Part shown: positions 1,564 to 51,913 of the stretch, piece after piece | How the letters are laid out: each line of letters opens with the position of its first letter | Position numbering within the stretch: position 1 is the first letter of the stretch | DNA from: a virus | Taxonomy: Duplodnaviria > Caudoviricetes | Direction: 5' to 3' (one strand) | IMG/VR virus record: IMGVR_UViG_3300032309_003728 | Span: 1-57,527 of that record | DNA length: 57,527 nt | Made by a program: the position numbers and the translations under genes | Notes under the pieces: model-generated | Told to the model about the DNA's origin: nothing | Database searches by the model: none | What the model saw: the letters and a program-made list of their open reading frames with translations, nothing else

Positions 1564-1952
1564 GGGCGCGTACTGGTTTCGACTTTAGAAATCGAAATTA
1601 AAATGCAAGTGGAGGTTGAATCGAGGACTCCTTAAAAAGTTTCAATTTATATTAACTGCCAAAACAGCAAAATATAAAGGTCATATTTCAGCAAGAGTTT
1701 CTCTTGTTGAGATGACCGAATCTGTAGCTTAAGTTCTACAGCGTGATACCCTTGAAGCATCTATTGGGATATTGCGTAATTAGATGTCTTATTATTAATA
1801 GTTTTTTTATTCTATTATTATTAAGTATTAAAAATAAAATCGCTAAATATGTTTGTTGTTTATCTATATGAAGCTAAAATTAAAAATAACTAAACTTGTA
1901 GTATTTTATTTTAGATTTTTAAAACACGAAGGTTCAACTCCTTCCGCGTCCA
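1564..1952 (+). ncRNA. ssrA: tmRNA (transfer-messenger RNA), one-piece, CCA not encoded
   Basis: 5' end GGGCGCGTACTGGTTTCGAC. Acceptor stem GGGCGCG/CGCGTCC with the G3:U alanine wobble, discriminator A1952. T-arm GAAGG-TTCAACT-CCTTC. pk1 from GGAG/CTCC and TTGAA/TTCAA. Resume context ATTAACT-GCC and tag ORF 1658-1732, AKTAKYKGHISARVSLVEMTESVA*. Confidence 0.93.
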
Positions 1953-1984
1953 AGTCCAAAACGATTCCCTCTAGCTCCAATTTT

Positions 1985-11911: not shown

Positions 11912-12976
11912 TTATAGTTTTAAATCATTAAAGTCATCATCAGATATATCAGTCTTTCTTGCACCAACCTTATAGGATGATATCTCTGTTTCTTGGGGAG
12001 CAACTTGTACCTTACTACTATCTAAATAGCTGTCATGCCATCCACCAATAGGGTTATCTTTTTGGTTAAATATCTTCTTGTACCCCAAACTTCTTAGTCT
12101 GCTATCGCAAAGCCACTTAGAGTAGCCATCTAAAACCTCTGCATTTAATCCAAGTAAACTGCCATTACTAAAGAGGTACTCAGACCATTCACTTTCATTC
12201 TTAGCGGCTTGTTCATAGAAAGCGTAGATTTTATCTTCATTTTTCTTTACTATACTTGTAAAGCCTTCTTTATCTTCGTCTCTTAAAATTTTAAGTAAAT
12301 TTTGACTAACTGCAAAATGCAAGGCTTCATCTCTTTGAATAAATTTAATAATCTTAGAATTACCTTCCATTTTACCACGGTATCCAAAATAGAAAGAGCA
12401 AGCAAAAGAGACATAAAACACAAGACCTTCCATTACATTAATAGAAAGAATAGCGTCAAAAATCTTTTGTTTAGGATCTTTCTTGTCATCATCTCCAAGA
12501 ATTTTATCAAAGTTACTTCTAATTAATTCTGCACGACTTATAATTTCTTTGTCTTCCATAATGCTATCAAAAAATTTAGTCGCATCTGGATATACATTAT
12601 TTAAAAGATAAGAATAAGAATAACTATGAATACCTTCAAATTGAGCCCATGTATTCATGCAAATCTCAAGTTCTGGATTGGTAACATAATCTTTAAGAGA
12701 ATGAATACTTCTAGAAAGCATACTATCCCCAAGAGTTTGAAATCTTAAATTACTATCAAAAACAAATCTTTCTGTATCTGTTAGATTGTTGTAATCGCTA
12801 CGATCTTTTCCTAAAGCTATTTCATGGGGCCACCAGAAATTTTCATTTTGTTTTTTGAATAACTCAAAAAATATTGGATACTTGAATCTATCATATCTTT
12901 GAAGATTTAAATCTTCTCCAAGGAATAATGGTTGTTTTGTGTGGTCTATATTTTTTATATTTAAAACGCTTTTCAT
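11912..12976 (-). CDS. nrdB: ribonucleotide reductase class Ia beta subunit
   Basis: FWWPHEI, QTLGDS, EGIHSYSY, EGLVFYVSF, RDEALH, QVAPQETEISSY. Confidence 0.95.
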   Translation of the reverse strand: MKSVLNIKNIDHTKQPLFLGEDLNLQRYDRFKYPIFFELFKKQNENFWWPHEIALGKDRSDYNNLTDTERFVFDSNLRFQTLGDSMLSRSIHSLKDYVTNPELEICMNTWAQFEGIHSYSYSYLLNNVYPDATKFFDSIMEDKEIISRAELIRSNFDKILGDDDKKDPKQKIFDAILSINVMEGLVFYVSFACSFYFGYRGKMEGNSKIIKFIQRDEALHFAVSQNLLKILRDEDKEGFTSIVKKNEDKIYAFYEQAAKNESEWSEYLFSNGSLLGLNAEVLDGYSKWLCDSRLRSLGYKKIFNQKDNPIGGWHDSYLDSSKVQVAPQETEISSYKVGARKTDISDDDFNDLKL

Positions 12977-13593
12977 AAAATATTATGTATATAGTTATTA
13001 TTACACCATAGGTCGTCTACATGAATTAAATTTGATTTCTCTCCACCGTAAAGTTCTGCTACTAAGGTATAATTATTATTATTTAAAAATTCTCTAGATT
13101 TATCTTTTACTTCTGAGTCTCTATAATAGTCTACCTCAAAAGATATTATGTTAAAATTAAAATTTGATTCAAATATTTTATAAAGTGTTTTTAAGGTTAG
13201 TTCTGGAGGGTCTAAATCTATTGATAAGTAATCTATTAATTTAGGAGAGTTATATTTTTCTAATACGCTCTTATAATCTATAGTTAAAGCATCTTGATTA
13301 ATATAATAAGTATTTTTTCTATGCACTTCCCATCCTTGATTAAAAGATGGGTCTATTTCAACAGCGACACCACTCCAGGCTCTTTCTTTCTCAAGGAAGA
13401 AAGAATTGCTTATATGTCTATAATCGTGAGCGCCTACGTCTAGAAAAAAACCATTAGTTTTAAATTTTAAAAAATTATCTACTATTTTATCTTGACCAGC
13501 TCTATATTCATTATCACTTAATTTAAATGAATTTATTAAGTCTACATTTAAACTCTCTTTGAAGAAGAGATAAAATTCTTGAGATTGATTCAT
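12973..13593 (-). CDS. FkbM-family SAM methyltransferase
   Basis: GFFLDVGAHD..SNS..LE...WSGVAVE; IDYLSID; ISFE. Confidence 0.8.
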   Translation of the reverse strand: MNQSQEFYLFFKESLNVDLINSFKLSDNEYRAGQDKIVDNFLKFKTNGFFLDVGAHDYRHISNSFFLEKERAWSGVAVEIDPSFNQGWEVHRKNTYYINQDALTIDYKSVLEKYNSPKLIDYLSIDLDPPELTLKTLYKIFESNFNFNIISFEVDYYRDSEVKDKSREFLNNNNYTLVAELYGGEKSNLIHVDDLWCNNNYIHNIL

Positions 13594-13595
13594 AT

Positions 13596-15860
13596 TTATA
13601 ATTTACATGCTCCAGAAGAACAGTCTTTATCCTCTTTCTCGTCTAAGGATTGCTCTCTGTCTCCATCATCTGTATTATTATAATAAAGGCTAATTAATCC
13701 AAGACTATATGCATATATAATTTCTTTCATAACTTTTGCGTCTGGAAGAATATTATTTTCATAATGGCTATAGTTGTAGTATACATTAGTTGATATGGCC
13801 ATGTCAATATATTTTTGAATAATAGCATTAATCTTTAATAACCCAATGTTATCTTTAAAGTCATATGCTAATTCATAATTTTCATCATATTTTCCTATGC
13901 CTGGAACTAGTACTGGAAGTTTACCCATTTTACTCATCTTATAAGTTATGAGACTTCTGATTGGTTCTACTCCATTTGTAGAAGATTGAATAACTGAACT
14001 ACTTTCGCATGGCATACAAGAAGATAGAGTTGAATGCCTTAAACCAAACTCTTTAATTTCTTTTCTTAATTTATCCCAGTCAAGAGAAAGTTTTCTTTTG
14101 CATAGTTCGTCTACTTTATCTTTGTATGTATCAATAGGTAATATACCTTTAGCGTATTTAGTTCTATCAAATTTTTCACATTTACCTTTTTCTTTAGCTA
14201 ATTCAAGACTTGATTTTAATAAATAAAATTGAAAATATTCCATCCATTCATCTAATACTGAAAGAGCTTTATCAGATGTATATTTTAATTCATTTTTCGC
14301 AAGAAAAGCGGCTAAATTAGTTATACCAACGCCAAGACTTCTTCTTTTTTTAGCAAAATTTTCAGCAGCAATATTAAAGTAATCTTGTAATTCAATAACT
14401 TCATCAAGAAATCTAACTATAAGATCACAAGTTTTTTCTAGATCTTGCCAGTTTTTAATCTCTAACATATTAACAGCAGAAAGAATGCACATGCCAATTT
14501 CTCCATCCTTGTCATGGTAATCTTTAAGTGGAATAGTAGGATGTATGACCTCAGTACATAAATTACTCATTGTCACTTTATCTAGCCAAGCGCCATGATC
14601 ATTAGCGTGATCAATGTTTAATATATAAATTCTTCCAGTTTCGACTCTTTCTTTAATAATGAGAGAGAATAATTTACGAGCAGATATTTTCTTTTTAATT
14701 TTAAGTTTTTTACTTTCGCACTCTTTATAGAGTTTGTCAAAATCTTTTGTGCCCCAAGCTTCGTAAAGTTCTGGTACTTCCGAATTATTAAACAAAGTAA
14801 TTTCTTCATCTTTTAGAACTCTATCATAAAACAATTTGCTCATACCAACCGTATAATCTAATTTGCGAACACGATTATCATCAGTACCAGCATTATTTTT
14901 TAATACTACAACATCTTCTATTTCGTAATGCCACCATTGAATATTACAAGTAGCACTGCCTCCTCTAAGACCATTTTGTTGCCAAGCTTTTACGCTACTT
15001 TCATATATTTTAAGAAAAGGTATAAGACCAGTATGAACGACTTCTCCATTTTTAATAGGAGAACCAATTGCTCTTATCTTACTAACGTCAATACCAATAC
15101 CGCATCTATTAGCAGTAGCCATACTAACAGCAGTAGCACTAGCTGTAATGCTTTCTCTGCTATCATCTACTCCAATTAAACAGCAACTAGCATAATTTTT
15201 ACTACTAGTGCGAACTCCTGCCATTACTGGTGTTGGAAGATTAATTTTATGCTTACTAATAGCGTCATAGAATTTTTTAATATAATTTATTCTAGTTTCA
15301 ATTGGATAATTCATAAAAGCATAAGCAGATATTAATATATAAGCAAATTGTGGAGTCTCATAAATAACATTAGTAGTTCTATTTTTAATTAAATATTTAT
15401 CACAAAGCTGTTTGATTCCAGCATAAGTAAAAATAAAATCTCTATCATGATCTATAAATTCTCCAATCTTGTTAAGCTCATCCTCTGTGTACTTAGAAGA
15501 AATTATTGGATCATAAATTTTATTCTTTATCCCGTTTTGGATTACTTCTATAAGTCGTGGTGCGTGTTTTCCTCTCCAAACATCTTTACGTAATTGATAA
15601 TTTAATAATCTGCTAGCTACATATTGATAATTTGGTTTTTCAACAGAAATTAAATTAGCAGCACTCTCAATTAATAATTTATGAATTTCTTTAGTTGTGA
15701 TTCCTTCGTGGATATTTATTTTAGCATTAATTTCAATATCAGTAAGACTTACTCCACTTAAGTTTTCTATTGCCCAATTTATTATTTTGTGAATTTTTTC
15801 TATATTAAATTTTTCTGAAACATTATTTCTTTTTTTAACATTTATAATTTTAGTCATCAT
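13596..15860 (-). CDS. nrdA: ribonucleotide reductase class Ia alpha subunit with ATP cone
   Basis: VKKRN ATP cone, PTPVMAG, ASCC, QNGLRGG, SNLCTE, MPCESSS, YY, C-terminal CSSGAC. No intein or intron visible. Confidence 0.96.
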   Translation of the reverse strand: MMTKIINVKKRNNVSEKFNIEKIHKIINWAIENLSGVSLTDIEINAKINIHEGITTKEIHKLLIESAANLISVEKPNYQYVASRLLNYQLRKDVWRGKHAPRLIEVIQNGIKNKIYDPIISSKYTEDELNKIGEFIDHDRDFIFTYAGIKQLCDKYLIKNRTTNVIYETPQFAYILISAYAFMNYPIETRINYIKKFYDAISKHKINLPTPVMAGVRTSSKNYASCCLIGVDDSRESITASATAVSMATANRCGIGIDVSKIRAIGSPIKNGEVVHTGLIPFLKIYESSVKAWQQNGLRGGSATCNIQWWHYEIEDVVVLKNNAGTDDNRVRKLDYTVGMSKLFYDRVLKDEEITLFNNSEVPELYEAWGTKDFDKLYKECESKKLKIKKKISARKLFSLIIKERVETGRIYILNIDHANDHGAWLDKVTMSNLCTEVIHPTIPLKDYHDKDGEIGMCILSAVNMLEIKNWQDLEKTCDLIVRFLDEVIELQDYFNIAAENFAKKRRSLGVGITNLAAFLAKNELKYTSDKALSVLDEWMEYFQFYLLKSSLELAKEKGKCEKFDRTKYAKGILPIDTYKDKVDELCKRKLSLDWDKLRKEIKEFGLRHSTLSSCMPCESSSVIQSSTNGVEPIRSLITYKMSKMGKLPVLVPGIGKYDENYELAYDFKDNIGLLKINAIIQKYIDMAISTNVYYNYSHYENNILPDAKVMKEIIYAYSLGLISLYYNNTDDGDREQSLDEKEDKDCSSGACKL

Positions 15861-15984
15861 TTCCCCTTATTTAAACAGTATAGTATGTTACATCATATTT
15901 ATACTTAAATAAAGAAAATTATTGTTTGTTATTAACAAAAGATATAACTTAACCAATCAAGTGTATCAATACCTTAATATAAAT

Positions 15985-16276
15985 TAACTTCCCAATGAGT
16001 TCTTCAAAGCGGAGCTTTCCCTGTGTTTTTCACAAAGTTAGCAAAGCCTATTAGTTCTACTTCCCAATTGAGTCTATAAGCCTTTCGGCCCCTAACACTT
16101 ATCGGATGTCGGTAGAATCATCCATCGCGCGTTAGCCCTTACACCTACACTCCCACTATTACTAGTGGTTATCTGGGTCGCAAGCTCCTATAGCGTTGCC
16201 CACGTTTCGAACTAATAAGACTTATCGTTTTTTTTGGAGTACGACAAACCTTATCCGCTAATTGGGCGGTATGTAT
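15985..16276 (-). ncRNA. unidentified highly structured non-coding RNA or long nrdA leader (boundaries approximate)
   Basis: About 44% GC (hand count 105/240 over 16021-16260). Own TTGACA-17-TAGTAT promoter with no ATG following. GNRA hairpins, a long-range helix and two possible pseudoknots. No ORF of 60 aa or more. Confidence 0.6.
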
Positions 16277-16281
16277 GCTCT

Positions 16282-16310
16282 ATACTATAAACTATTTATC
16301 TTTTTGTCAA
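16282..16310 (-). promoter_or_regulatory. sigma70-type promoter TTGACA-17-TAGTAT driving the structured RNA/nrdA
   Basis: -35 at 16305-16310, -10 at 16282-16287. Confidence 0.7.
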
Positions 16311-16318
16311 AAATTATT

Positions 16319-16347
16319 TTGACTTTAAAATATTTTTATTTTATAAT
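16319..16347 (+). promoter_or_regulatory. sigma70-type promoter TTGACT-17-TATAAT (leaderless)
   Basis: ATG 16354 is 6 nt after the -10 box; back-to-back with the minus-strand promoter. Confidence 0.7.
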
Positions 16348-16353
16348 TTAAAT

Positions 16354-16992
16354 ATGCGAATTAAAGTAATACAACATTCAGATGATAGGTTTTTAAATGC
16401 TCTTAATATTACTAAACCTAAAAACATAGAATACTGTAAAAAGTATAATTACGATTATCAAGACTATATAGGAGATTTTGTACCAAAGGATATAACTAGC
16501 GAAAGAAGAGTTTACTGGAATAAGCCATATATTTTAAAATCTATAATAGAAAATGAAGATTATGATTGGATTTTTTATCTCGATGCAGATGCCGTATTTG
16601 TAGATTTTGATTTAGACTTAAAAAGATTCATAAATTTCTCTGATATTGGAACGGAATTTATAGTATGTTACGTTAATCAACAACCAGAATGTAGATATTT
16701 TAATTTTAATTTTGGGGTATTCTTTTGCAAATCTTCTAATTATATGAATTCTATAATGGAGGAGTTAATAAGAATATGCGAAGTAAACAATGGAGCCATA
16801 GACGATCAGCCCATTTTTCATCAATTATTAAGAACTAATTACAAAAACGTTGCTCAAAAAACAGCTATATTTCCATCTATAGCATTTAATCATCATGGAA
16901 GTTTTATATATCACGCAGTAGGATTAGATGGAGTAAATAATACTGGTAATGAAATTTCAAAATTAGATCAATTAAAACAAATTATTAAATAA
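16354..16992 (+). CDS. GT34-like (galactosyl/xylosyltransferase family) glycosyltransferase
   Basis: YCKKYNYDY, YWNKP, YDWIFYLDADA, NFGVF, DDQ, FIYHAVG. Confidence 0.8.
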   Translation: MRIKVIQHSDDRFLNALNITKPKNIEYCKKYNYDYQDYIGDFVPKDITSERRVYWNKPYILKSIIENEDYDWIFYLDADAVFVDFDLDLKRFINFSDIGTEFIVCYVNQQPECRYFNFNFGVFFCKSSNYMNSIMEELIRICEVNNGAIDDQPIFHQLLRTNYKNVAQKTAIFPSIAFNHHGSFIYHAVGLDGVNNTGNEISKLDQLKQIIK

Positions 16993-18128
16993 TGAAAAAT
17001 TTTCAAGAAACATATTATGGTAAAAAAATAGATACCGCAAATATACTCAATATAGAAGACGCTGCAAAAATAATCAATAAAAGAAAAACAGTAGTGATCA
17101 CTGGTGTAACGGGTCAAGACGGAAGCATTATGGTAGATTTTTTATTAAAAAATACAGACTATTTAATATTTGGAGGAGTAAGAAGATTAAGTGTTTATAA
17201 CCATAAAAACGTAAAGCACATTAATTCAGATAGATTTCATTTGATAAATTTTGATCTAAATGATTCTCACGCTATATCTAGAACTGTTGAAAAATTGCAA
17301 CCAGATTATTTTATAAATTTTGCGGCTCAAAGTTTTGTTGCAAGTAGTTGGGATTTCGCTAGACAAACTTGGTCCACAAACTCAACTAGCGTTCTTGACA
17401 TATTAGAAGCAATTAGATTATATAAGCCTTCTTGCAGATTATATCAAGCTGGATCAAGCGAAGAATTTGGGAATGTATTATATACTCCACAGGACGAAAA
17501 CCATCCACTTAGGCCAAGGAGTCCATATGGTGCTAGTAAAGCAGCCTCGAGACAGCTTATAAAAGTTTATAGAGATTCCTATGGTCTTTATGCTATTCAA
17601 GGATGGTTATTTAATCACGAAGGCCCAAGAAGAGGAGAAGAGTTTGTCACAAGAAAAATAACTAAAAATATTGCAAGAATTCATGATGCTATAAAAAATA
17701 ATCAAGATTTTACACCAATGGAATTAGGAAACATTAACGCAAAAAGAGATTGGAGCGACGCAGAAGATTTTATAGAAGGCGTATGGATGATGCTTAATCA
17801 GGATATATATAATAAAAATTATAATGGAAATCCAAATGAATACGTTTTTTCTTCGAACGAAACTCACACTATAAAAGAATTCGTTCAAAAAGCTTTTGAA
17901 ATCGCTAGTATAAAAGGTAATTGGGTAGGAGAAAATGAAAATGCAAAATACATTTCTAATGACGGTAAAGTATTAGTTGAAGTTAATCCTAAATTTTATA
18001 GACCAGCAGAAGTAGAATTACTGTTGGGCAACTCTTCAAAAGCAAGAGAAGAGCTTTGTTGGCAACCAAAAATATCATTCGAACAATTAATTAAAAAAAT
18101 GGTAGAAAACGATATACAAAATTTATGA
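16992..18128 (+). CDS. gmd: GDP-mannose 4,6-dehydratase
   Basis: ITGVTGQDGS, AAQSFV, YQAGSSEEFG, PRSPYGASK, LFNHE.PRRGEEFVTRKI, KRDW, FYRPAEVELLLG. Confidence 0.93.
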   Translation: MKNFQETYYGKKIDTANILNIEDAAKIINKRKTVVITGVTGQDGSIMVDFLLKNTDYLIFGGVRRLSVYNHKNVKHINSDRFHLINFDLNDSHAISRTVEKLQPDYFINFAAQSFVASSWDFARQTWSTNSTSVLDILEAIRLYKPSCRLYQAGSSEEFGNVLYTPQDENHPLRPRSPYGASKAASRQLIKVYRDSYGLYAIQGWLFNHEGPRRGEEFVTRKITKNIARIHDAIKNNQDFTPMELGNINAKRDWSDAEDFIEGVWMMLNQDIYNKNYNGNPNEYVFSSNETHTIKEFVQKAFEIASIKGNWVGENENAKYISNDGKVLVEVNPKFYRPAEVELLLGNSSKAREELCWQPKISFEQLIKKMVENDIQNL

Positions 18129-18748
18129 ACTTTACAAACGCGGATTTAATAGTAGCTAGATACAATGAAGATATATCTTGGATAAAGTCTAATTACGATA
18201 ACGTTTTTGTTTATAACAAAGGGCAAGATAATTTAATGACAAATTTTAATTTAAAAAAATTAAATAATGTAGGAAGAGAGTCTCAGACTTATTTATATCA
18301 TATAGTGCAAAATTACAATAATCTTAACAAGATAAATATTTTTACTCAAGGAGCAATACTAGATCATGGCATGAATGAATCAGTATTATTTAATTATTAT
18401 ATCGAAGCAATAAAGTATGGAGCTTCATTAAATAAAAACTTTTATCCAGAATGGGTTGAAAAATTTGGTGGTTACAAGAATTTCAGGATTGATGAACATG
18501 CAGGTAAAAAAGTTTCTAAATCTAAATATTCATTATATGAATGGAAAAAGAATTTCAATATATCAGATGACGATCAACCATTTAAATGGTATCAAAAAGC
18601 TGTATTTGCAATTTCTAAAGATTCTATCCACACCAGAGATTTACAGTTTTATCAAAATTTACTAAATGACCCTGAACTAAACCAATTAGATCCAGAGATA
18701 GGGCATTACTACGAGAGATCTTGGGCCAAAATCTTTAATATAGAATGA
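18125..18748 (+). CDS. DUF3431-like (glycosyltransferase-associated) protein
   Basis: LIVARYNEDISW, VYNKG, NVGRESQTYLYHI, GHYYERSW. Confidence 0.75.
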   Translation: MNFTNADLIVARYNEDISWIKSNYDNVFVYNKGQDNLMTNFNLKKLNNVGRESQTYLYHIVQNYNNLNKINIFTQGAILDHGMNESVLFNYYIEAIKYGASLNKNFYPEWVEKFGGYKNFRIDEHAGKKVSKSKYSLYEWKKNFNISDDDQPFKWYQKAVFAISKDSIHTRDLQFYQNLLNDPELNQLDPEIGHYYERSWAKIFNIE

Positions 18749-19836
18749 TTTACGATTTCTTAATTGTAGGTTGTGGTTTGTTTGGAGCTACTTTCGCAAA
18801 TAGAGCTAAAGCTAAAGGCTATAAATGTATAGTGATTGATTCAAGAGATCATATTGGTGGAAACTGCTTTACAGAAGAAGTAGAGAAAATAAATATACAT
18901 AAATATGGCCCACATATTTTTCACACTAATAATTCAGAAATATGGAACTATGTTAATAAATTCGCTAAATTTAATAATTTTATAAATAGACCAAAAGTAA
19001 ATTATAAAAATAGAATATATTCTTTCCCTATAAATCTAATGACATTTCATCAGCTTTGGGGGATCAATACCCCAAAAGAAGCTGAAGAGAAATTGAACGA
19101 AATTAAAATAAAAATAGACAATCCCTCTAATTTAGAAGAATGGGTTTTGTCTCAAGTTGGTGAAGAAATTTATTATACTTTTATTCATGGCTATACCAAG
19201 AAGCAATGGAATAGAAACCCCAAAGAATTAAATAGCTCAATAATTAAAAGACTACCAATAAGATTGAGTTTTAATGATAATTATTTTTTCGACGTACATC
19301 AAGGCATACCTATTGGAGGATATACTAAAATGATAGAAAATATGTTAGAAGGTATAGACGTTTTAACAAATGAAAACTATTTCAATAGAAGAGACTACTG
19401 GAATACAAAATCTAAACGTATAGTCTACACTGGGAAAATTGATGAATTTTATGATTACAAATATGGAGAGTTAGAATATAGATCTCTCAGATTTGAAACA
19501 GAAAAACACTCAATAAAAGATTATCAAGGAAATGCAGTTGTAAACTATACGGAGGACAATATACCATTCACAAGAATAGTAGAGCATAAACACTTTGAAT
19601 TTGGAGATCATAATTATACATATATAACAAAAGAGTATCCAGAAGAATACTCTAAAGATAAAATTCCATACTATCCAATTAATGATGAAAAAAATAGTTA
19701 TACTTACAACAAGTATAAAGATTTAAATCAAAAAAGTAATATAATTTTTGGTGGAAGATTAGCTGAATATAAGTACTATGATATGCATCAAATAATAGGT
19801 TCGGCAATAAATAAAATGGAGAAATTAAATGAATAA
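18745..19836 (+). CDS. glf: UDP-galactopyranose mutase
   Basis: VGCGLFGA FAD motif, HIGGNC, HKYGPHIFHT, GYTKKQW, LEYRSL, TRIVEHKHF, PYYP, GRLAEYKYYDMHQ. Confidence 0.95.
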   Translation: MIYDFLIVGCGLFGATFANRAKAKGYKCIVIDSRDHIGGNCFTEEVEKINIHKYGPHIFHTNNSEIWNYVNKFAKFNNFINRPKVNYKNRIYSFPINLMTFHQLWGINTPKEAEEKLNEIKIKIDNPSNLEEWVLSQVGEEIYYTFIHGYTKKQWNRNPKELNSSIIKRLPIRLSFNDNYFFDVHQGIPIGGYTKMIENMLEGIDVLTNENYFNRRDYWNTKSKRIVYTGKIDEFYDYKYGELEYRSLRFETEKHSIKDYQGNAVVNYTEDNIPFTRIVEHKHFEFGDHNYTYITKEYPEEYSKDKIPYYPINDEKNSYTYNKYKDLNQKSNIIFGGRLAEYKYYDMHQIIGSAINKMEKLNE

Positions 19837-39209: not shown

Positions 39210-42143
39210 TTAAATACTATTACCAGTTATATCAATATATTTATAAATAACATCATTTAATCCAATTTTTAATTGAGCAACATCTTTTTCTAAAAATCCT
39301 TGGTTATTGTATCCTATTCTTACATTATAACTATTAACTGTAGGATCATCTATAAAATCTCCAGTAAATCTAATTCCTGTTAGAGATTTCCTATTTGGAC
39401 TATTAAGAGCTAAATAGGATATATTATCATCTGATACTAAAATATTCCATATTCTTCCAGATTCTTGATTGAATGTTCTATATCCAACTATTCCTGATAC
39501 ATTTCCTGTTATAATATCTGAATAATTCTCCAGCATATATCCAGTTGCAAGTACTTGCTCAAATATATATCCTGTTAGTAATCCTGTAAAATACATATTT
39601 GGATAGAAATTTTGACCACTAAATAAAGTTTCGCCTGTTTGTAAAATTGGTCTAGTTTCTCCGCCAAAGGTTGTTATAGATATATTATCTCCTAAAGTTC
39701 CAGAATCTAAAGCTGCAGAAAGTTTTAATCTGTTATTAGGTAAATCTAATTCAGAAGCTATTCCGTATTCATCTTTACCAGAATTAATAATATTATGTAA
39801 TTCAGTAATATTTTTAAAATAATCAGGAGGATTAAAGAATGTTTCTGGAGAATATATTAAAGTTTTTATAGTATCTCTATTTGAATTTTGTATAGTAATA
39901 GAGTCTAATTCTACAGGATTATTATAACTTAAATAATTGAATGAATTAATATATCCTGTTGCTTGGTTTTGTTTTCCTATTAATTTATATCCTGTGATTA
40001 TTTGATCAAAAATAAATACTCCGCTATTTATATAGTCTACAAATCCAGTGAGTTTTCCTGTTATGTAATTAAATCCAGAAACATTTTTTCTTAATATACC
40101 AACAGAAGGTATATATCCCACAACATTTTCATATCCACTTTTATGAATATAACCGCTTCCTTCTAATAAAATTTTATTTAAAATATTAATTCCTGGTACT
40201 TCTCCAAGACTCTTAGCTTCTCTACTAACCACTAATTCTGAAGTTTCCCATCCGCTTCCTCCTACAACAACATAACTTACATTTTTAAAGAAATTAACTT
40301 TATAAGATTCTGGATCATAAAAGTTTTCTGTTATAGTTTGAATTCCACTGTATTTTCCTGTATAAAGGTTTTCTCTATACAAAGAGAAAGGAGGCAAGGT
40401 TACATCTTCATTTTTAGAAAATTCATTGAACTCTTCTGGTTTTAAATCAGTTCTATTTAAAAGATTTCCACTCTCTAATAAACTAGCTCTAGGTTTATAA
40501 CGAGCAGCATTTTGTTTTATTATATAGTAATCTTCTATAGGAGTTATTTTTCTATTTTTTGAATCTACAAAATTTTGATTATTTAATAATTTTCCTGTTG
40601 TGTAACCAGAAGCATTTAAGACTCCAAATGAATCTGTTGGGCCTATATCTCTATATTCAACAAACCCTTTGATTCTATGGAAAATATCTCCAGAATAATA
40701 AGAGTTATTAATATTATCTACTCCTGTTAAAATAATTGAATTTATTTCTGGATTAAAATTATATTTTGAAAAAAGACTTATGTTTTTGACTATTAATTTA
40801 TTTACTAATTGTTCCTTATATTCCTGATTTTCTGTTTTTTTAATAACAGGAGCAGTTCTAAAACCGCTCATGTATACTCTTGCGTATTTATATTTATTTG
40901 AAAATTCAGTAGGCTTTTCTGGCAAAAACACAAAATTGTTTGAAGAAGAACTACTTGAAGAAGAACTACTTGAAGAAGAACTTGAAGAAGGACAAGCTGG
41001 AGGATTAACTTGACCCCAATCATTATGTCCCCAAGCAGTTACGCTGCCATCTTTAAGAAGAGCAAGAGAATGACGATCTCCTGCAGCTATTTCTACTGCA
41101 TTAGTTCCTATACCAATTGGAATAGTAGTTTGGCCATAAGCATTATAGCCCCAACCAGTTACAGACCCATCTTTAAGAAGAGCAAGAGAATGACTACTTG
41201 CAGCAGCTATAGCTGTAGCATTATTTCCTATTCCAACTGGAATATTAGTTTGACCATTAAAATTATACCCCCAACCAGTTACTGTTCCATCTTTTAATAA
41301 GGCAAGAGAAAAATTATATCCTGCAGCTATTCCTGTCGCATTATTGCCTATTCCAACTGGAATATCTATTTGACCATAATTTTCCTCACCGACTACTCCC
41401 CACCCAGTGACTCTACCATCTTTTAGTAATGCAAGAGAATGAAACTTTCCACCAGCTATTCCTGTTGCGTTGTTGCCTATTCCAACTGGAATAGTAGTTT
41501 GACCATAAGTATTATCTCCCCAACCAGTTACGCTGCCATCTTTAAGAAGAGCAAGAAAATGAAAAAATCCAGCAGCTATTCCTGTTGCGTTGTTGCCTAT
41601 TCCAACTGGAATATCTATTTGACCATAACTATTAATTCCCCAACCAGTTACGCTGCCATCTTTAAGAAGAGCCAAAGAATTAAATTGTCCATAAGCAGCT
41701 ATTTTTGCAACATTACCTTGTATATCTTGGGGAACATTTAATTGGCCCTCGTTATTATATCCATAACCAACCACAGTCCCATCTTTTAGAAGTGAAAGAG
41801 AATAATCCTGTCCTGCAGTTATTGCAGAAACATTATTACATTTAGAAACAATGTTTATAGTCCCAGCCATGAGACTATGATGTTCACAGTTGTAATATAG
41901 AATACTTGGAGCACTAGCGTCAACAGTAAATGTTAATGTGCTATTAGTAGTTCCGTTATTTGTGATCCCTATATTGTATTGATTTATTGATCCTATATTC
42001 TTGGTTGTTTTGATCCAGAAAGGATGATTAGGAGCATTAATAGTAAATGTATATGTTTGTCCTCGAATTAACGTTAATACAGGATTACTAGCTCCATCTA
42101 TGATGTAAGCTGCGGCACCATTATTTGTTACTGAAAAATTCAT
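39210..42143 (-). CDS. putative virion surface/tail protein: cupredoxin-like domain, RCC1/BLIP-II 7-blade propeller, poly-Ser linker, TG-rich C-terminus
   Basis: NPVLTLIRGQTYTF..HPF..LYYNCEHHSLMAG; 7 IAAG..HSLALLKDG.VTGWG.N..GQ repeats; about 16 Ser. Confidence 0.75.
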   Translation of the reverse strand: MNFSVTNNGAAAYIIDGASNPVLTLIRGQTYTFTINAPNHPFWIKTTKNIGSINQYNIGITNNGTTNSTLTFTVDASAPSILYYNCEHHSLMAGTINIVSKCNNVSAITAGQDYSLSLLKDGTVVGYGYNNEGQLNVPQDIQGNVAKIAAYGQFNSLALLKDGSVTGWGINSYGQIDIPVGIGNNATGIAAGFFHFLALLKDGSVTGWGDNTYGQTTIPVGIGNNATGIAGGKFHSLALLKDGRVTGWGVVGEENYGQIDIPVGIGNNATGIAAGYNFSLALLKDGTVTGWGYNFNGQTNIPVGIGNNATAIAAASSHSLALLKDGSVTGWGYNAYGQTTIPIGIGTNAVEIAAGDRHSLALLKDGSVTAWGHNDWGQVNPPACPSSSSSSSSSSSSSSSSNNFVFLPEKPTEFSNKYKYARVYMSGFRTAPVIKKTENQEYKEQLVNKLIVKNISLFSKYNFNPEINSIILTGVDNINNSYYSGDIFHRIKGFVEYRDIGPTDSFGVLNASGYTTGKLLNNQNFVDSKNRKITPIEDYYIIKQNAARYKPRASLLESGNLLNRTDLKPEEFNEFSKNEDVTLPPFSLYRENLYTGKYSGIQTITENFYDPESYKVNFFKNVSYVVVGGSGWETSELVVSREAKSLGEVPGINILNKILLEGSGYIHKSGYENVVGYIPSVGILRKNVSGFNYITGKLTGFVDYINSGVFIFDQIITGYKLIGKQNQATGYINSFNYLSYNNPVELDSITIQNSNRDTIKTLIYSPETFFNPPDYFKNITELHNIINSGKDEYGIASELDLPNNRLKLSAALDSGTLGDNISITTFGGETRPILQTGETLFSGQNFYPNMYFTGLLTGYIFEQVLATGYMLENYSDIITGNVSGIVGYRTFNQESGRIWNILVSDDNISYLALNSPNRKSLTGIRFTGDFIDDPTVNSYNVRIGYNNQGFLEKDVAQLKIGLNDVIYKYIDITGNSI
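40941..40988 (-). repeat. poly-Ser-encoding microsatellite (about 16 Ser)
   Basis: Tandem TGAAGAAGAACTACT-type units. Confidence 0.85.
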
Positions 42144-42188
42144 TTTTTATTTTCCTTTAATATGTTATATGGATAGTTCATTTTAATT

Positions 42189-44564
42189 TTATAGACTAAC
42201 TGTTAAAACTTTAGAAACTGTGACTGGATCATAATTAATATTTCCAGCTTGACTAGCAGTAATAGTCGTATTTCCAGCCGCTAATATAACAACAGTTCCA
42301 TTAGAATTTACTGTAGCCACACTAGTGTTACTACTCGAATATGTTATTGGTATACTATTATTATCACTTGTGACGTTAAGATTAAAATTAGCATTATTAA
42401 TATATTTTTGAGCTATATTTGGAAAAGTTATAGTTTGAGCAATTTTTCCTATTATAAATATTTTGCTTACAGATTGGTCACAAAACTCATTGTAACCAGA
42501 TACTGTAGCACTAATCACAGATAATCCTCCCCCTACAACCGTAAGAATTCCTTCAGGACTTACTGTTGCTACGCCTGTATTACTACTTCTATAAACTATT
42601 GGAGCCCCATTAGTGTTGTTAACTACCCCAAGATCAAATGGTGGAGAATTATAAGTTTTAGCTGGTATATCTGGGAAAGTGAGTCTTATAGTTTTATAAG
42701 TATTATAATCATTTAACTCTTTAAAACTTTGATTTACTAAATAAACAGAGTCTTTGCCAAAGATTCCTTCTCCAAGTTGTGCAATTTTTTCAAAAAATAA
42801 AGTATCTTCATTTGGTTTTTGGCTAGTGTAAATTACATTTATTTTTAAATTACTTAAATTAGTTTTGAGAGTTTTTATTTTATTTAAAACGCCAGAATAA
42901 GATATACTAATTGGTGGGCTAAATAATGGATCTTTTGATATACAATCTTCTTGGTTGTATTCGGGTAATAACAATGGAGAATTATTCGTGAAGATATTAA
43001 TTACTTTAGTATAATATGGTGTCCAAGATAAACCTGTGGCATAATCTAAAGCGCCAGTTAAATCTGACCCTTCATATCTTTTTTGCTTTTTTAAAGTTAA
43101 ACCTGAAATAGAAGAAAATAATAAATCCTTATCATTGGTGAAATCATTACCAGTCAAAAGATTTGGATCATCAGAGTACCAAATGTTTCCTACTGAATTA
43201 AAACAATTTTGATCTAGAAAATCATTTAATAAACTTCTAAAACCATTTTTAAACAAACAAAGGCCTTTTTCATTTCCGTAAGAGTAATCAACAATATTTA
43301 AAATTTCTATACCTTTATTTTCTTGATTTATAAATTCTGAATTATCATTATATATTGTGCGTACTTGGGTTTTAAAATTTCCTGAATTAAATATTCCCGA
43401 ATATGAAACTATTTCATCCTGGTTATATTCAGTATATGGACTCTCGTAAAATGGAAGATAACCACTAGAAGAGTTTTTTAATAATACTAATTTATGTTTT
43501 GAATCGTATAATGGAGTAAAATCTTTTTCTCCTTTTAAAGTGATACTAAAATTATTTTTTAATTCATTACAGTTATCAGAAGAAGAACTACTTGAAGAAG
43601 AACTTGAAGAAGAACTTGAAGAACTACTTGAAGAAGAACTTGAAGAAGAACTTGAAGAACTACTTGAAGAAGAACTTGAAGAAGAACTTGAAGAAGGACA
43701 AGCTGGAGGATTAGTTTGACCATGAGTATTCTCTCCCCAACCAGTTACAGTTCCATCTTTTAATAAAGCAAGAGAATAAGAGAATCCAGCATCTATAGCT
43801 ATTGCATTGGTTCCTATTCCAACTGGAGTAGTACTTTGACCAAAAACATCACTTCCCCAACCAATTACAGTTCCATTTTTGAGAAGAGCAAGAGAATGAT
43901 AAAGTCCAGCGCTTATTCCTGTTGCATTGTTACCTATTCCAACTGGAATATCTATTTGACCAAGATCACTTCTTCCCCAACCAATTACAGTTCCATTTTT
44001 GAGAAGAGCAAGAGAATGAAAACCTCCAGCAGCTATTCCCACTGCATTAGTTCCTATACCAACTGGAATATCTATTTGACCATTGGATGCGACCGATGTG
44101 ACTCCCCAACCAGTTACCCTACCATCTTTTAATAATGCAAGAGAATGATACCACCCTGCACTTATAGCAGCAGCATTAGTTCCTATACCAACTGGAATAT
44201 TTAATTGGCCATAAGAGTTATTTCCCCAACCAATTACAGTTCCATTTTTGAGAAGAGCAAGAGAATGTGAGAACGTCGAGGATGAAAATGCAGCAGCTAT
44301 TCCTGCTACATTACCTTGTATTTCCTGTGGAATATTAATTTCATCTGCCACCAGACCTCCCCAACCAGTTACCCTACCATCTTTTAATAATGCAAGAGAA
44401 TGATCAAATCCAGCAGCTATTTCCACTGCATTAGTTCCTATACCAACTGGAATATTTATTTGACCAAGATCATTTCTTCCCCAACCAGTTACAGTTCCAT
44501 CTTTTAATAACGCAAGAGAATAAAAACCTCCAGCAACTATTTTAGCATAATTATAACAACTCAT
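42189..44564 (-). CDS. putative virion surface protein: RCC1-like 7-blade propeller, poly-Ser, two Ig-like (Big_2-type) domains
   Basis: 7 GWG repeats; about 39 Ser; YRSSNTGVATV and YSSSNTSVATV Ig motifs. Confidence 0.75.
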   Translation of the reverse strand: MSCYNYAKIVAGGFYSLALLKDGTVTGWGRNDLGQINIPVGIGTNAVEIAAGFDHSLALLKDGRVTGWGGLVADEINIPQEIQGNVAGIAAAFSSSTFSHSLALLKNGTVIGWGNNSYGQLNIPVGIGTNAAAISAGWYHSLALLKDGRVTGWGVTSVASNGQIDIPVGIGTNAVGIAAGGFHSLALLKNGTVIGWGRSDLGQIDIPVGIGNNATGISAGLYHSLALLKNGTVIGWGSDVFGQSTTPVGIGTNAIAIDAGFSYSLALLKDGTVTGWGENTHGQTNPPACPSSSSSSSSSSSSSSSSSSSSSSSSSSSSSSSSSSSSSSSDNCNELKNNFSITLKGEKDFTPLYDSKHKLVLLKNSSSGYLPFYESPYTEYNQDEIVSYSGIFNSGNFKTQVRTIYNDNSEFINQENKGIEILNIVDYSYGNEKGLCLFKNGFRSLLNDFLDQNCFNSVGNIWYSDDPNLLTGNDFTNDKDLLFSSISGLTLKKQKRYEGSDLTGALDYATGLSWTPYYTKVINIFTNNSPLLLPEYNQEDCISKDPLFSPPISISYSGVLNKIKTLKTNLSNLKINVIYTSQKPNEDTLFFEKIAQLGEGIFGKDSVYLVNQSFKELNDYNTYKTIRLTFPDIPAKTYNSPPFDLGVVNNTNGAPIVYRSSNTGVATVSPEGILTVVGGGLSVISATVSGYNEFCDQSVSKIFIIGKIAQTITFPNIAQKYINNANFNLNVTSDNNSIPITYSSSNTSVATVNSNGTVVILAAGNTTITASQAGNINYDPVTVSKVLTVSL
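43578..43694 (-). repeat. poly-Ser-encoding microsatellite (about 39 Ser)
   Basis: Tandem GAAGAAGAACTT and GAAGAACTACTT 12-bp-type units. Confidence 0.85.
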
Positions 44565-44593
44565 TTTATATTTTTTCCTTTTTCCATCATAAA

Positions 44594-44599
44594 TTACAC
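44594..44599 (-). promoter_or_regulatory. GTGTAA motif, candidate late promoter
   Basis: GTGTAATTTATG...AAAAAGGAAAAAATATAAAATG before 44564. Confidence 0.55.
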
Positions 44600-44606
44600 C
44601 CTTAAA

Positions 44607-47600
44607 TTATGAATTATAATCATAAAATCCTAGTCTAAATACATTAACATCTTTCTTTACCTCTATGGTTTCTTCCTTTTTATTTTCGTCAACTGGGGCA
44701 TCAGTAATATCTTCGCATGGTTTACATCCAATTTCATTTACTCCATTTTGATATATACCAGAGCAACACCAACCAGTAGGTCTTTTTATAGGATCGTATA
44801 TTCCTGAGCAACAATTTCCACTATATCCTAAATATTTAGGCTTATTAATTAATTCTGGATCACACTTCAAGGATAAATAATCTCCACTAGGTTTCCAAAT
44901 TCCACAATCTTCTGGTTCTTCTTCTGATACAGTACATTTAAATCCTCCTTTTTCAGAAACGTTACCTATTATAAAGTCTGTATATCCCTTTCCACAAAGA
45001 ATACCTGACCCAGTAATTGAAGGAATACATATTAAACTGTTATTATTACTACTGTTACCTAAATAATTCTTGTTGCCTGTGTTATATGGAGAGACGCTCC
45101 ATAATCCAGTAGCTAATCCAGAAAGATCTTCGATATCTGAAGTGTTTTTATTTTGAGAAGATGTTTCTGAAGATATGGTAATTTTTTGGGTTATAGTAAT
45201 AGTCTCGTCTTGTAGATTTTCGTATTTGATATTAGTATCTTCTATAGGTGGAAAAACGGTATCATTAGGAGAGTTTAAGTAAGTATTAATAGGTTGTCTA
45301 TCTTCTGAGGAAACCACATCAATCCAATTTTCTCCATCTTCAGATATTTGAAGTTTTATAATTTTAGGAACCATATAACTATAAACTTTATTTCTAGGAG
45401 TTAATTCTAATTTGATATTAAAAGCTCCAAATTTTCCGCTATTTAAAGCAACCAAATTTATTATCTCTTCATTGTTTGAATTAAGTCCTCCGTTTTGACC
45501 ACTTAATAATGGGCCATAATTGAATTCAATATTTGGATTGTTTTTGAATGGAATCCAAGTATAGTATTTTTTAAAAGCCAATTCATTATTAATTTTATTA
45601 ATCAGATCATTTTTACCACTAAAGTAATTTTGTCCAGTTAAATTTTCTGAAAAGATAAACTCTTTTGCAACAGCTTGTTTTTCAAAAGGTATATCATCTA
45701 CATCATATACGCCTTTAAATACAGCATTAAAATCAAATTGATATTGATTAAATAGTACCTTATCTCCTTCTTCAAATGCTTTATAAGTGATTTGTCCAGA
45801 ATAGTAAGAGTTGTTGTATTTTAAGTCTAAACCTTTTGGACTTATATCATCCATAAAATATACATTATTGTATATTGCATCTCCACTATCTGAAACTGAA
45901 ATTCCACTATATATTTGTCCTTGTATATAAGCAGTTGGATCTTCCCAATCATCTTCTCCTTTACAATAACAGCATGTATCTTTTAAGTTGTCATCAATAG
46001 CTATAGTATAATAATTAGGATCAGCAGGATCCTCTAAATAAGTTAATAAAGTTCTTTCTAAAGTATCTGTTTCTAATTGTTTTGTAATATCTGTTGATGT
46101 ATTAATTGGAGAAGGACCTATTACATTATATTTAGATTTAGGAAAGTTGTTTCTTGGTATGTCCATTTGTCTAAAACCAGAAAGTTCATAACTAGCGCCT
46201 AATCTGCAAATAAACCGTAAAGATTTAGTGCATATAGGATCTGAAATTATTATTCTTGTAGAAGAGCTGCAATTATTTTCGTAATACCCAGTATATTCCT
46301 TAAAAGATAAACTTGGAGACTCAATACTTCCACTAGTATTTCTTTCAAAATCAATATTAAAAGCAATTGGCGCTTGATTATTTAAAGCATAAGATCCAGA
46401 AGGAAGATCTCTGTAATCCAAATAATAACTTGCCCAAACTTCATCGTAATTCTGCTTGTATATTTCTCTTATTTTTTGTTCTGTAAGAGATTTAATATTT
46501 AATGAAACAGCATGTAAATTTTCATTCTTTTTATTTCGATTTGTTTCATTTATTAAAAAGTCTTTTTCGTTTCCAGATAGAATTAAATTATATTTTCCAG
46601 GATTTAGAAAAGTGAAAAATCCAGTTTCAGTTCCTGTTATAAAATTCCCATCTTTAATTTTATTATCATTTTCATCAAATATAGCAAGAGAGTATTCGCC
46701 GATATTATAAGCTAAATTACTTACTGGATTTTTGTATTCAAAAAGTAAAGGATAAGGTATATTCTTTCCCCTAGAAGCTGCTGGTTTTGATATAAATATT
46801 TCATTTTTAATAAAATTAAATCTTTTATCTGAATATATGGTATTATTTTTATAATAAGAAGTATTATAATGTAAAGTGTTATTTACTTGAATGTTCTTGA
46901 GAATGTTTCTTTCTTTTAAGATATCATTTATATCAAATAAAATTCCAGTTGGAGGCAGAAGATTTTTTATTTCAACATTTAAAATGGTTGGATTTTTTAC
47001 AACTTCGCCAAAGAGACCTGTTTTTAAAATAAAAGCATTCATCTCTATATCACAATCTGCCATGTCGTCCTCATCAAACCCATAAAGATTAAGATCTAAT
47101 AATAATGTATGAGACTCATAAGCTTTTGGTAAATATAAATTATAAATTTCATTATCAATTCTATTTGAATATTTTTGAGCACTATAATTTGTATAAAAAC
47201 GAGACTGCTCTATAGGCTCTATAGTTAATAGACTTTTATCTATAAAAAGTTCTCTTGAAATTGAATTTTGAAAAAATGAAGTAGTTTCATTTTGTTTTGC
47301 TGTTATCGTAACTGTTCCAGCTTTTAGGATAGTAACATCTCCGATAGAGGAAACTTGAGCTATGCTACTATCAGAACTTTGATATTGTATATTAACTTCA
47401 TTATTATCAGTAGTAACATTTAAGTTAAAAGATGGATCTTCTAATTTTTTATATTCTATTTTTGGAAATTCTAATTTAGAAGTTTTTTTAATTACAATTG
47501 ATGCAGTAGTTTCAGCGGCGATCCAATTTTGATCGTCTTCTTGATAAGCTGTAATTGCAACTATTCCAATATCATTTATAGTTGCTAAATTACCTTGTAT

Positions 47601-50177: not shown

Positions 50178-50208
50178 CTTATTTTATTTCCTTTTACCTT
50201 TTATTAAA

Positions 50209-50214
50209 TTACAC
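50209..50214 (-). promoter_or_regulatory. GTGTAA motif, candidate late promoter
   Basis: GTGTAATTTAATAAAAGGTAAAAGGAAAT...ATG 50177. Confidence 0.55.
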
Positions 50215-50225
50215 TTCATGGTTTT

Positions 50226-51911: not shown

Positions 51912-51913
51912 AA

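Follow-up and report, generated by a model that had tools for sequence, protein, structure and literature searches.

A candidate new family of double-pseudoknotted phage RNAs with twin identical segments, encoded beside tmRNA or upstream of nrdA in freshwater phages

Large, intricately folded RNAs are rare in bacteria and phages, and GOLLD and ROOL, of which GOLLD is the longer, offer the closest comparison to the RNA described here. Both are phage-borne and lie beside tRNA-type genes, ROOL being about 580 nucleotides (nt) long, as stated in the accessible part of PMC5737381, and GOLLD, ROOL and OLE were found by cryo-electron microscopy to form RNA-only complexes, as stated in the accessible part of 10.1101/2024.12.08.627333. 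Here, we analyse an RNA predicted on the minus strand of a 57,527-nt (57.5 kb) stretch of viral DNA (IMG/VR record IMGVR_UViG_3300032309_003728; Duplodnaviria, Caudoviricetes), the whole of which is referred to as the window. Like GOLLD and ROOL, this RNA is phage-borne and ornate, is predicted to contain pseudoknots, has its own transcription unit and occurs near tRNA-type genes, and its function is likewise unassigned. Unlike them, it measures about 300 nt (vs. about 580 nt for ROOL), matches neither of their covariance models and is found in one freshwater phage clade. It appears to represent a previously undescribed RNA family of about 290–340 nt, beyond any Rfam 15 family.

The predicted gene and its promoter are placed as follows.

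16305 to 16310, minus strand: -35 hexamer TTGACA of the RNA's own promoter
16282 to 16287, minus strand: -10 hexamer TAGTAT, after a 17-nt spacer
15985 to 16275, minus strand: the predicted RNA, its 5' end placed about 7 nt past the -10 hexamer at a conserved ACAUA, its 3' end just past copy B of a twin motif

Two sigma-70-type promoters stand back to back at 16282–16347. The minus-strand promoter TTGACA-17-TAGTAT named in the initial annotation was located at 16310–16282, and of 46 distinct sequences upstream of family members, 43 contain an exact TTGACA N16-18 TAnnnT and a 44th was recognised by eye. In addition, ACAUA is conserved near the start of every family member, and the covariance-model match at the locus spans 16283–15970 on the minus strand. 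The GC island that had been proposed was also evident: the GC content of 16001–16300 was 0.427, the highest of 58 sampled 300-nt segments, the others ranging from 0.213 to 0.413. No open reading frame (ORF) of at least 20 amino acids (aa) was found on the minus strand of 15975–16285, and the ORFs on the plus strand of this interval were three of 21–29 aa, all starting with TTG. Variable alignment columns were spread over the codon positions as 49/53/52, showing no 3-base periodicity, and indels were mostly of 1–2 nt (100 and 58, vs. 12 of 3 nt). A small protein gene was rejected on the missing minus-strand ORF and codon-type substitution pattern, and the earlier non-coding assignment stood. 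Furthermore, the minimum free energy of the minus strand was -85.9 kcal/mol (z = -2.74), a value that 0 of 200 shuffles matched, vs. z = -0.91 for the plus strand, where 36 of 200 shuffles were as good. These results indicate a promoter-driven, non-coding and highly structured minus-strand RNA gene.

The relation of the RNA to known families was evaluated with the covariance models of Rfam 15. At the gathering score, only the transfer-messenger RNA (tmRNA) gene at 1564–1953 was matched in the whole window. At E ≤ 10, the lone match in the RNA region was Ref70, with 16.4 vs. 115 bits and on the opposite strand, and the subfamily loci L012, L013 and L069, searched at E ≤ 5, returned tmRNA, tRNA and two chance matches elsewhere. 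With no Rfam family at either threshold, strong covariation and a conserved promoter, the proposal of a new class of phage non-coding RNA (ncRNA) was borne out. Of 80 nrdA loci retained from IMG/VR, 19 were positive in nhmmer searches with a single sequence and a profile; these elements are all of the window type and lie upstream of nrdA on the same strand at a distance of about 130 nt, or 1.2 kb in L066. A motif scan of IMG/VR gave 28 stretches, nine of them on new contigs, of which eight were full-length matches; nrdA follows directly in seven of the eight, and in the eighth the DNA is too short to tell. Of 31 stretches from a scan of metagenomes, 28 are members, with nrdA downstream wherever the DNA suffices; L116, L123 and L125 were discarded as GC-rich chance matches. 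The metagenome and IMG/VR matches overlap, many being the same contigs.

Diverged versions were then read in the upstream regions of seemingly negative loci, namely v2a (L013, L014, L027, L029, L057) and v3 (L069), and a search with v2a yielded 24 more members (v2b and v2c) in nrdA loci, 2–5 kb beyond nrdAB and on the opposite strand. Moreover, a covariance model of 313 positions (R1), built from 38 distinct window-type sequences alone, matched 52 elements at full length in 87 sources, with E values from 1e-12 to 1e-120 and with all diverged subfamilies included (1e-12 to 1e-23). Because a model of window-type sequences alone matches the diverged subfamilies over their full length, these form one family by sequence and structure together. 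A scan of IMG/VR for the v2 motif, an A-rich 17-mer, gave 103 stretches, and 79 loci searched contained 46 members by R1, the other 33 being chance matches; a looser degenerate motif gave 46 further loci among the matches listed, none holding a member by R1. In total, the family occurs on at least 75 IMG/VR contigs, and all family counts are lower bounds.

Outside this group, two motif scans of 185,579 prokaryote genomes gave no match for pattern 1 and seven for pattern 2, which lay in GC-rich genomes, were about the number expected by chance and were rejected, none being found by the nhmmer profile. A nucleotide search of GenBank phages with the RNA gave no match. In the next phage clade (NrdA 77–79%), no member was found by BLAST or by R1 at E ≤ 1 in five contigs, one of them a complete genome of 217 kb; on reading, the stretch ahead of the tmRNA in this genome looks protein-coding. 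We found no description of the RNA in print. An IMG/VR survey reports motifs of 29–151 nt, the accessible portion of its main text does not mention nrd, and its supplements could hold fragments (PMC10690425).

A compact predicted fold, with a body closed by P1, ten further helices, two GNRA-capped hairpins and two pseudoknots, was shown by covariation. Its helices are as follows.

16255 to 16269, minus strand: H1, a variable 5' hairpin CCGC/GCGG, 4 of 4 pairs changing on both sides
16246 to 16251, minus strand: 5' strand of P1, AGGUUU, partner 16004–15998; 94% paired, one pair GC:21/UA:12
16224 to 16245, minus strand: P2, hairpin GUCGU/ACGAU with an A-rich loop; 5 of 5 pairs changing on both sides in alignment A3 (see below)
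16209 to 16223, minus strand: 5' strands of P3 (AAGUC, partner 16048–16044) and P4 (UUAGUUC, partner 16057–16051)
16174 to 16202, minus strand: P5/P5a, hairpin UGGG-CAA-CGC, loop, GCG-A-CCCA; 100% paired, the loop holding the 5' strand of pseudoknot PK1
16153 to 16168, minus strand: P6, hairpin CCACUA-GUAA-UAGUGG, loop mostly GNRA; covariation
16092 to 16135, minus strand: P7 (CUAACGC/GUGUUAG) around P8 (GGAUG/CAUCC); covariation
16080 to 16089, minus strand: P9, hairpin GCC-GAAA-GGC, loop GAAA or other GNRA; covariation
16019 to 16037, minus strand: P10, hairpin CUUUGUG/CACAGGG; covariation

From 5' to 3', H1, P1, P2 and the long P3/P4 stem are followed by P10, GGRAAAG-N6-8, the 3' strand of P1 and a conserved 3' tail; the P3/P4 stem encloses P5/P5a, P6, a conserved junction J6/7, P7 around P8, P9 and a conserved single strand. 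In four v2b members (L044, L052, L054, L058), a 10-bp AT-rich hairpin and a T-run stand 5 nt past the 3' tail (twin copy B), the only clear terminator-like signal after any member.

Covariation was measured in two alignments. In A2, a MAFFT alignment of window-type sequences with a structure model drawn by hand, 93.5% of cells were paired, vs. 32–48% with slid partners; both sides changed in 29 of 69 pairs, vs. 3–6 in the slid controls, and for four of five measures the observed value was reached by 0 of 500 shuffles. In A3, which holds all subfamilies, the corresponding figures were 95.5% vs. 34–43% of cells and 52 of 61 nested pairs vs. 17–23, with a covariation score of 0.617 vs. 0.05–0.10; since A3 was fitted to the model structure and the sequences are related, these numbers represent strong support and not probabilities. 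Within A3, both sides changed in all seven pairs of P4 and all five of P3. The covariation that the initial annotation had called for among homologues is thus strong in both alignments, and the helices it had drawn from one sequence all lie at the coordinates it gave. The hairpins CCGC/GCGG, CCACUA/UAGUGG and GCC-GAAA-GGC were all in place and kept by compensatory change, as was GGAUG/CAUCC nested in CUAACGC/GUGUUAG (P8 in P7). Its 11-bp long-range helix corresponds to P3 plus P4 (16223–16209 with 16057–16044), and from its hairpin UUGUCGU/ACGAUAA only the core GUCGU/ACGAU, kept by compensatory change, was carried into the model.

Two pseudoknots cross this nested fold.

16182 to 16188, minus strand: 5' strand of PK1, GGAGCUU, in the P5a loop
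16011 to 16017, minus strand: 3' strand of PK1, AAGCUCC, after P10, with GGGAA before it
16144 to 16148, minus strand: 5' strand of PK2, GUAGG, in the conserved J6/7 (GUGUAGGUGUAAGGG)
16116 to 16112, minus strand: 3' strand of PK2, UCUAC, in the P8 loop

PK1, which had been proposed from the window sequence, was strongly confirmed. Fourteen distinct fully complementary versions of 6–10 bp occur among 35 distinct combinations, partners from the same RNA scored 7.5 vs. 5.1 for swapped partners, and three pairs covary in A2. PK2, which joins J6/7 to the P8 loop, was absent from the earlier list. Its six complementary versions (GUAGG/CCUAC, GUAGGU/ACCUAC, GUAGCU/AGCUAC, GUGGCU/AGCCAC, GUGGAU/AUCCAC and GUAGUU/AACUAC) account for 27 of the 35 combinations; two more, that of the window included, contain a G-U pair, and six have 3–4 bp only. 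PK2 is likely real, if weaker and less secure than PK1. A further pseudoknot had been suggested between CCCAAUU in the H1 loop and AAUUGGG. This complementarity exists in the window type only, other loops being present in the L036 and L047 types, v2a, v2c and v3, and in L063 and L070 the AAUUGGG side is altered while the H1 loop is not. The pairing is therefore not supported, as it is missing from other types and shows no co-change.

The conserved single strand within the P4 multiloop and the 3' end of the RNA carry the twin motif.

16059 to 16074, minus strand: copy A, GACUCAAUUGGGAAGU, predicted single-stranded, in the P4 multiloop
15987 to 16002, minus strand: copy B, GAACUCAUUGGGAAGU, its first bases in the 3' strand of P1, the rest in the 3' tail

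The two copies are the same apart from one extra purine in A. Without this purine, A equals B over 12–13 nt in 114 of 114 parsed sequences (a set redundant through trimming). Nine versions of the twin exist, differing by single letters or wholesale: UCAUUGGGAAGU, UCAUUGGAAAGU, UCACUGGGAAGU, ..GGGAAAU, ..GGGAAGA, ..GGGAAAA, UCAAAGAAAAGU, UUAAAGAAAAGU and UCAGGGAAAAAGU. The flank R-G-A-N-C-U of the copies changes in concert, and the copies bound a unit of about 65–75 nt. Tolerated variation would yield discordant pairs, and none was seen; selection, or else maintenance by copying, thus underlies the identity. The P2 loop (window 16240–16231; L013, L012) contains the beginning of the twin motif once more, as a partial third copy that reads ACUCCAAAA in v1 and AGUCAAAUAA in v2 and changes with the subfamily. 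We know of no twin identical single-stranded segments described for GOLLD or ROOL. As a partner of the twin, a T-rich element preceding nrdA was considered on account of its fit to the v2 motif; it was rejected because it does not change alongside the motif. In antitoxin RNAs of type III (ToxI-like), repeats are arranged head-to-tail in tandem and the gene of an endoribonuclease toxin follows directly; this class was rejected, the two repeats here being 69–75 nt apart inside a folded body, with nrdA, a glycosyltransferase gene, or the small ORF orf69 (described below) and tmRNA as neighbours.

Exact identity through nine versions is what re-annealing would select, and the segments enclose a unit of about 65–75 nt. 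It could be supposed that the twins bound a template of about 70 nt for a polymerase, the nascent copy re-annealing at the other repeat in a copy-choice or rolling mode like that of reverse-transcriptase defence systems, for use by the phage or as a decoy. The ncRNAs of DRT2 and DRT10 are such templates for repeat generation and are likewise structured, of about 300 nt and with short repeats that bound the unit, as far as the accessible parts of the sources describe them. The phage RNA differs from them in being encoded by a phage and not in a host defence locus, in having no reverse transcriptase nearby or in near-complete relatives, and in a unit without an open frame. A search for RVT_1 reverse transcriptases gave none in the window and none in four relatives of 77–87% completeness. 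A Neo-gene-like open frame in A-B concatemers was rejected, the unit mostly not being a multiple of 3 and most frames containing stops. Moreover, the interval includes strands paired in P1, P3, P4 and PK1. We regard such a template role as very improbable.

The position of the RNA was compared among loci. In the window, its neighbours and the tmRNA gene are as follows.

13596 to 15860, minus strand: nrdA, large subunit of class I ribonucleotide reductase with ATP-cone, a neighbour outside the RNA unit
11912 to 12976, minus strand: nrdB, class I ribonucleotide reductase
16354 to 16992, plus strand: glycosyltransferase gene, divergent from nrdA
1564 to 1953, plus strand: one-piece phage tmRNA gene, the sole Rfam match of the window, 14 kb from the RNA

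The gap between nrdA and the glycosyltransferase gene is 493 nt. The five v2a members and the v3 member lie upstream of nrdA, as do the window-type members. Of the 24 v2b and v2c members in nrdA loci, 21 stand head-to-head with a tmRNA gene, and one of the other three has no room to tell. The gap between RNA and tmRNA is mostly about 290 nt (767 nt in one) and contains a conserved 69-aa ORF (orf69); neither orf69 nor the flanking ORFs matched a Pfam family, and orf69 was not found in the window. Among 47 v2 loci of the motif scan, whose contigs are partly shared with these 24, 33 are divergent from tmRNA, five lie directly upstream of nrdA, two show neither arrangement and in seven the upstream DNA is shorter than 500 nt. 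In L012, the minus-strand RNA stands between two plus-strand groups, with nrdA, nrdB and small ORFs before it and orf69, tmRNA and tRNA-Thr after it; the 3' end of the RNA meets the stop of a convergent ORF, and thus the RNA leads no gene there. In L149, the RNA is followed by a different, unannotated ORF. In addition, G001 and G010 lack the RNA by nrdA and carry it elsewhere on the contig beside tmRNA, and contig names show the same for several further loci that seemed RNA-less, which also appear in the motif scan. No second copy was found beside the tmRNA in the window. As the RNA is found by tmRNA or by nrdA, and seeming absences are filled elsewhere, it appears to be a core, single-copy, free-standing gene of the clade with two alternative positions, of which the one by nrdA is not defining.

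These data bear on the view that the RNA is a cis-acting leader or riboswitch of nrdAB, that is, the 5' part of an early transcript whose fold, perhaps with a nucleotide or cofactor, sets read-through into nrdA or its translation. Leaders upstream of nrd genes are known, cobalamin riboswitches being an example, and the window lineage resembles them in having a structured RNA upstream of nrdA on the same strand. Window-type members with enough DNA, save L066, lie 110–140 nt upstream of nrdA on that strand, no intrinsic terminator separates RNA and nrdA in the window, and one RNA-library contig, which may be DNA, joins the 3' half of the RNA to the start of nrdA in a relative. The resemblance ends with the absence of a riboswitch family match in Rfam, of a fixed nrdA position and of a conserved expression platform: no alternative pairing was found across subfamilies, and the candidate hairpins of the window type are missing in v2. 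Against a leader also stand the 33 of 47 v2 loci placed head-to-head by tmRNA, often on the strand opposite nrdA, together with L012, with nothing co-oriented downstream, L149, with an unrelated ORF there, and L066, 1.2 kb from nrdA. Moreover, the roughly 100 nt next to nrdA (window about 15861–15965, minus strand) contain conserved GTACAC, TTGTTAATAAC, TTTTTCTTT and TGTAAYATA, and these elements are the same with or without the RNA upstream (close loci L002-L071, L077). In the window as a whole, TGTAAYATA is no general motif (3 matches vs. 2.8 expected), and this region next to nrdA is probably an nrdA-specific promoter or operator. The cis-regulatory role for nrdAB put forward in the initial annotation was accordingly abandoned, five of 47 v2 loci lying upstream of nrdA and the nrdA upstream region being independent of the RNA; homologues do not always precede nrdA, as most v2 members lie by tmRNA. 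A leader function is now considered unlikely.

The company of tmRNA and tRNA genes recalls two other kinds of RNA. The location habit of GOLLD and ROOL, phage-borne and beside tRNA-type genes (accessible part of PMC5737381), is shared by the RNA, with tmRNA and tRNA-Thr adjacent in L012 and tmRNA adjacent in 21 of 24 and 33 of 47 loci. It could thus be imagined as a self-assembling ornate homo-oligomer, with contacts made by the twin segments or by palindromic loops, and several H1 loops do hold short palindromes (AAUU, UGCA, UAAUUA). Such AT-rich 4-nt palindromes are, however, expected by chance, the RNA does not match the GOLLD or ROOL models and has at most half their size, and self-assembly leaves the need for identical segments unexplained. 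We consider this reading doubtful and give it little weight.

The second comparison is with bacterial RNase P RNA (RF00010), which the RNA resembles in size class, in two long-range pseudoknot-type helices and in its tmRNA and tRNA company. A ribozyme could release itself from a larger transcript, accounting for the lack of terminators, or process phage tmRNA or tRNA precursors in the manner of RNase P. Besides having tmRNA and tRNA-Thr genes as neighbours, the RNA resembles large ribozymes in its size, its pair of pseudoknots, its GNRA loops and the many unpaired nucleotides that do not vary, and GRGGRAAAG before PK1, which reads GAGGGAAAGUC in v2c, forms with its helix a motif (GGRAAAG) that we take to recall the CR-I/P4 strand of RNase P. 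In RNase P of type A, P4 pairs CR-I on the 5' side with CR-V on the 3' side, and the specificity domain lies between the two. In the phage RNA, in contrast, it is the 3' partner that bears GGRAAAG, and the 5' partner is located in the loop of hairpin P5a; the strand order of PK1 is the reverse of that of P4, and there is no equivalent of, and no room for, a specificity domain. RF00010 gave no match in the window at E ≤ 10 (control genomes were matched), and no RNase P or ribozyme family was found at E ≤ 10 in the region or at E ≤ 5 in the three subfamilies. Bacterial RNase P RNA was rejected on the missing RF00010 match and reversed helix order, and permuted RNase P on its topology. A group I intron was likewise rejected, with no model match and with the element intergenic and under its own promoter. 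A ribozyme of either kind thus seems improbable.

With sequence comparison showing the fold and the promoter, and showing that the RNA is independent of nrdA and its twins identical, we propose that the RNA is probably a trans-acting bivalent scaffold or decoy. Judging from the near-consensus, conserved sigma-70 promoter, host RNA polymerase would transcribe it early in infection. The transcript would fold into a compact body closed by P1 and held by PK1 (P5a loop with the strand after P10) and PK2 (J6/7 with the P8 loop), and this body would present two identical purine-rich segments of about 13–20 nt, predicted to be single-stranded. As a rigid bivalent scaffold or decoy, the RNA would act in trans, its two segments each engaging a copy of the same sequence-specific partner, which could be a nucleic acid or a protein dimer and would co-vary with the phage lineage. 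The place beside tmRNA and tRNA genes, taken alone, hints at, without demonstrating, a role in the sphere of translation or RNA processing; in duplex predictions between RNA and tmRNA, unbounded duplexes were no better than shuffles. A narrower and rather unlikely version is a bivalent guide or realignment RNA, in which the double-pseudoknotted holder shows one guide-like sequence twice, for two identical nucleic-acid sites or for strand re-annealing.

Several observations weigh against this interpretation of a structured, free-standing and trans-acting RNA. All members come from one phage clade, so that the sequences are not independent. The fifth measure in A2, further pair types, gave 53 vs. 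a shuffled mean of 60.7, and A3 is biased towards the structure to which it was fitted. For PK2, own partners scored weakly better than swapped ones (5.17 vs. 4.57), a closeness that makes PK2 less secure than PK1. No consistent partner of the twin was found in the RNA with 150 nt on either side, in the window or in the surroundings of the tmRNA genes of five subfamilies. Most members have no recognisable terminator, and the ends of the RNA were placed by inference. About 34 members lie 120–140 nt upstream of nrdA, where read-through into nrdA is possible. The RNA-library runs (n = 2) contain small shares of the stretch, as contigs only and with possible DNA carry-over, and one RNA-library contig extends upstream of the promoter of the RNA. 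On the other side, the support is unusually good for a family from a single clade, with compensatory changes in nearly every helix, two predicted pseudoknots and a conserved promoter.

The carriers of the RNA are one clade of uncultivated large freshwater phages with contigs of about 120–150 kb. In metagenomes from lakes and other fresh waters, many contigs, the longest of 148 kb, encode NrdA relatives with 86–91% identity; the best cultured match of NrdA is Pelagibacter phage HTVC008M (52% identity), and the DnaE-like polymerase of the window has only distant phage relatives. Annotation of the genes in the window gave a large-phage set with class I ribonucleotide reductase, the DnaE-like polymerase, DnaB and sugar-nucleotide enzymes. 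The record is labelled a provirus with a completeness judged at 38%, a label that may stem from the tmRNA gene rather than from a host flank. The tag encoded by this tmRNA, AKTAKYKGHISARVSLVEMTESVA, is unusual in ending with VA, as tmRNA tags usually end with AA. In relatives, tmRNA lies at 9080–9467 in L012 and 829–1216 in L149, with the 69-aa ORF before it and tRNA-Thr after it. The nrdA and nrdB genes of the window flank an FkbM-type methyltransferase ORF (12973–13593, minus strand); those of L012 adjoin each other with no gene in between. A sugar-nucleotide operon at 16354–19836 (plus strand) encodes a GT34-like transferase, GDP-mannose 4,6-dehydratase, a DUF3431 protein and UDP-galactopyranose mutase; GT34 and DUF3431 are, we assume, mostly eukaryotic families. 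Giant repeat proteins encoded at 39210–55414 (minus strand), with RCC1-repeat/Big_2 (977, 791 and 1856 aa), FG-GAP (561 aa) and He_PIG (1166 aa) assignments, are likely tail-fibre or adhesin-like. The cumulative GC skew reaches its minimum at about 16000–16350, which coincides with the divergent promoter pair and the switch in gene orientation, and could mark a replication origin or simply the direction of transcription.

To our knowledge, large, intricately folded RNAs with known function are ribozymes, riboswitches or ribonucleoprotein cores, so that each additional class may bring new biochemistry to light. The most interesting feature of the present family is the letter-for-letter identity of the twins through nine versions, which calls for a mechanism. 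A bivalent guide or realignment RNA, if true, would be of a kind not yet described in phages, with a guide sequence that drifts between lineages while both copies are always kept identical. The family also teaches that a position upstream of a given gene in a single genome can mislead, since the family view removed the riboswitch reading. Given its place beside the tmRNA gene, the RNA may help to explain the presence of translation-rescue RNAs in large phages.

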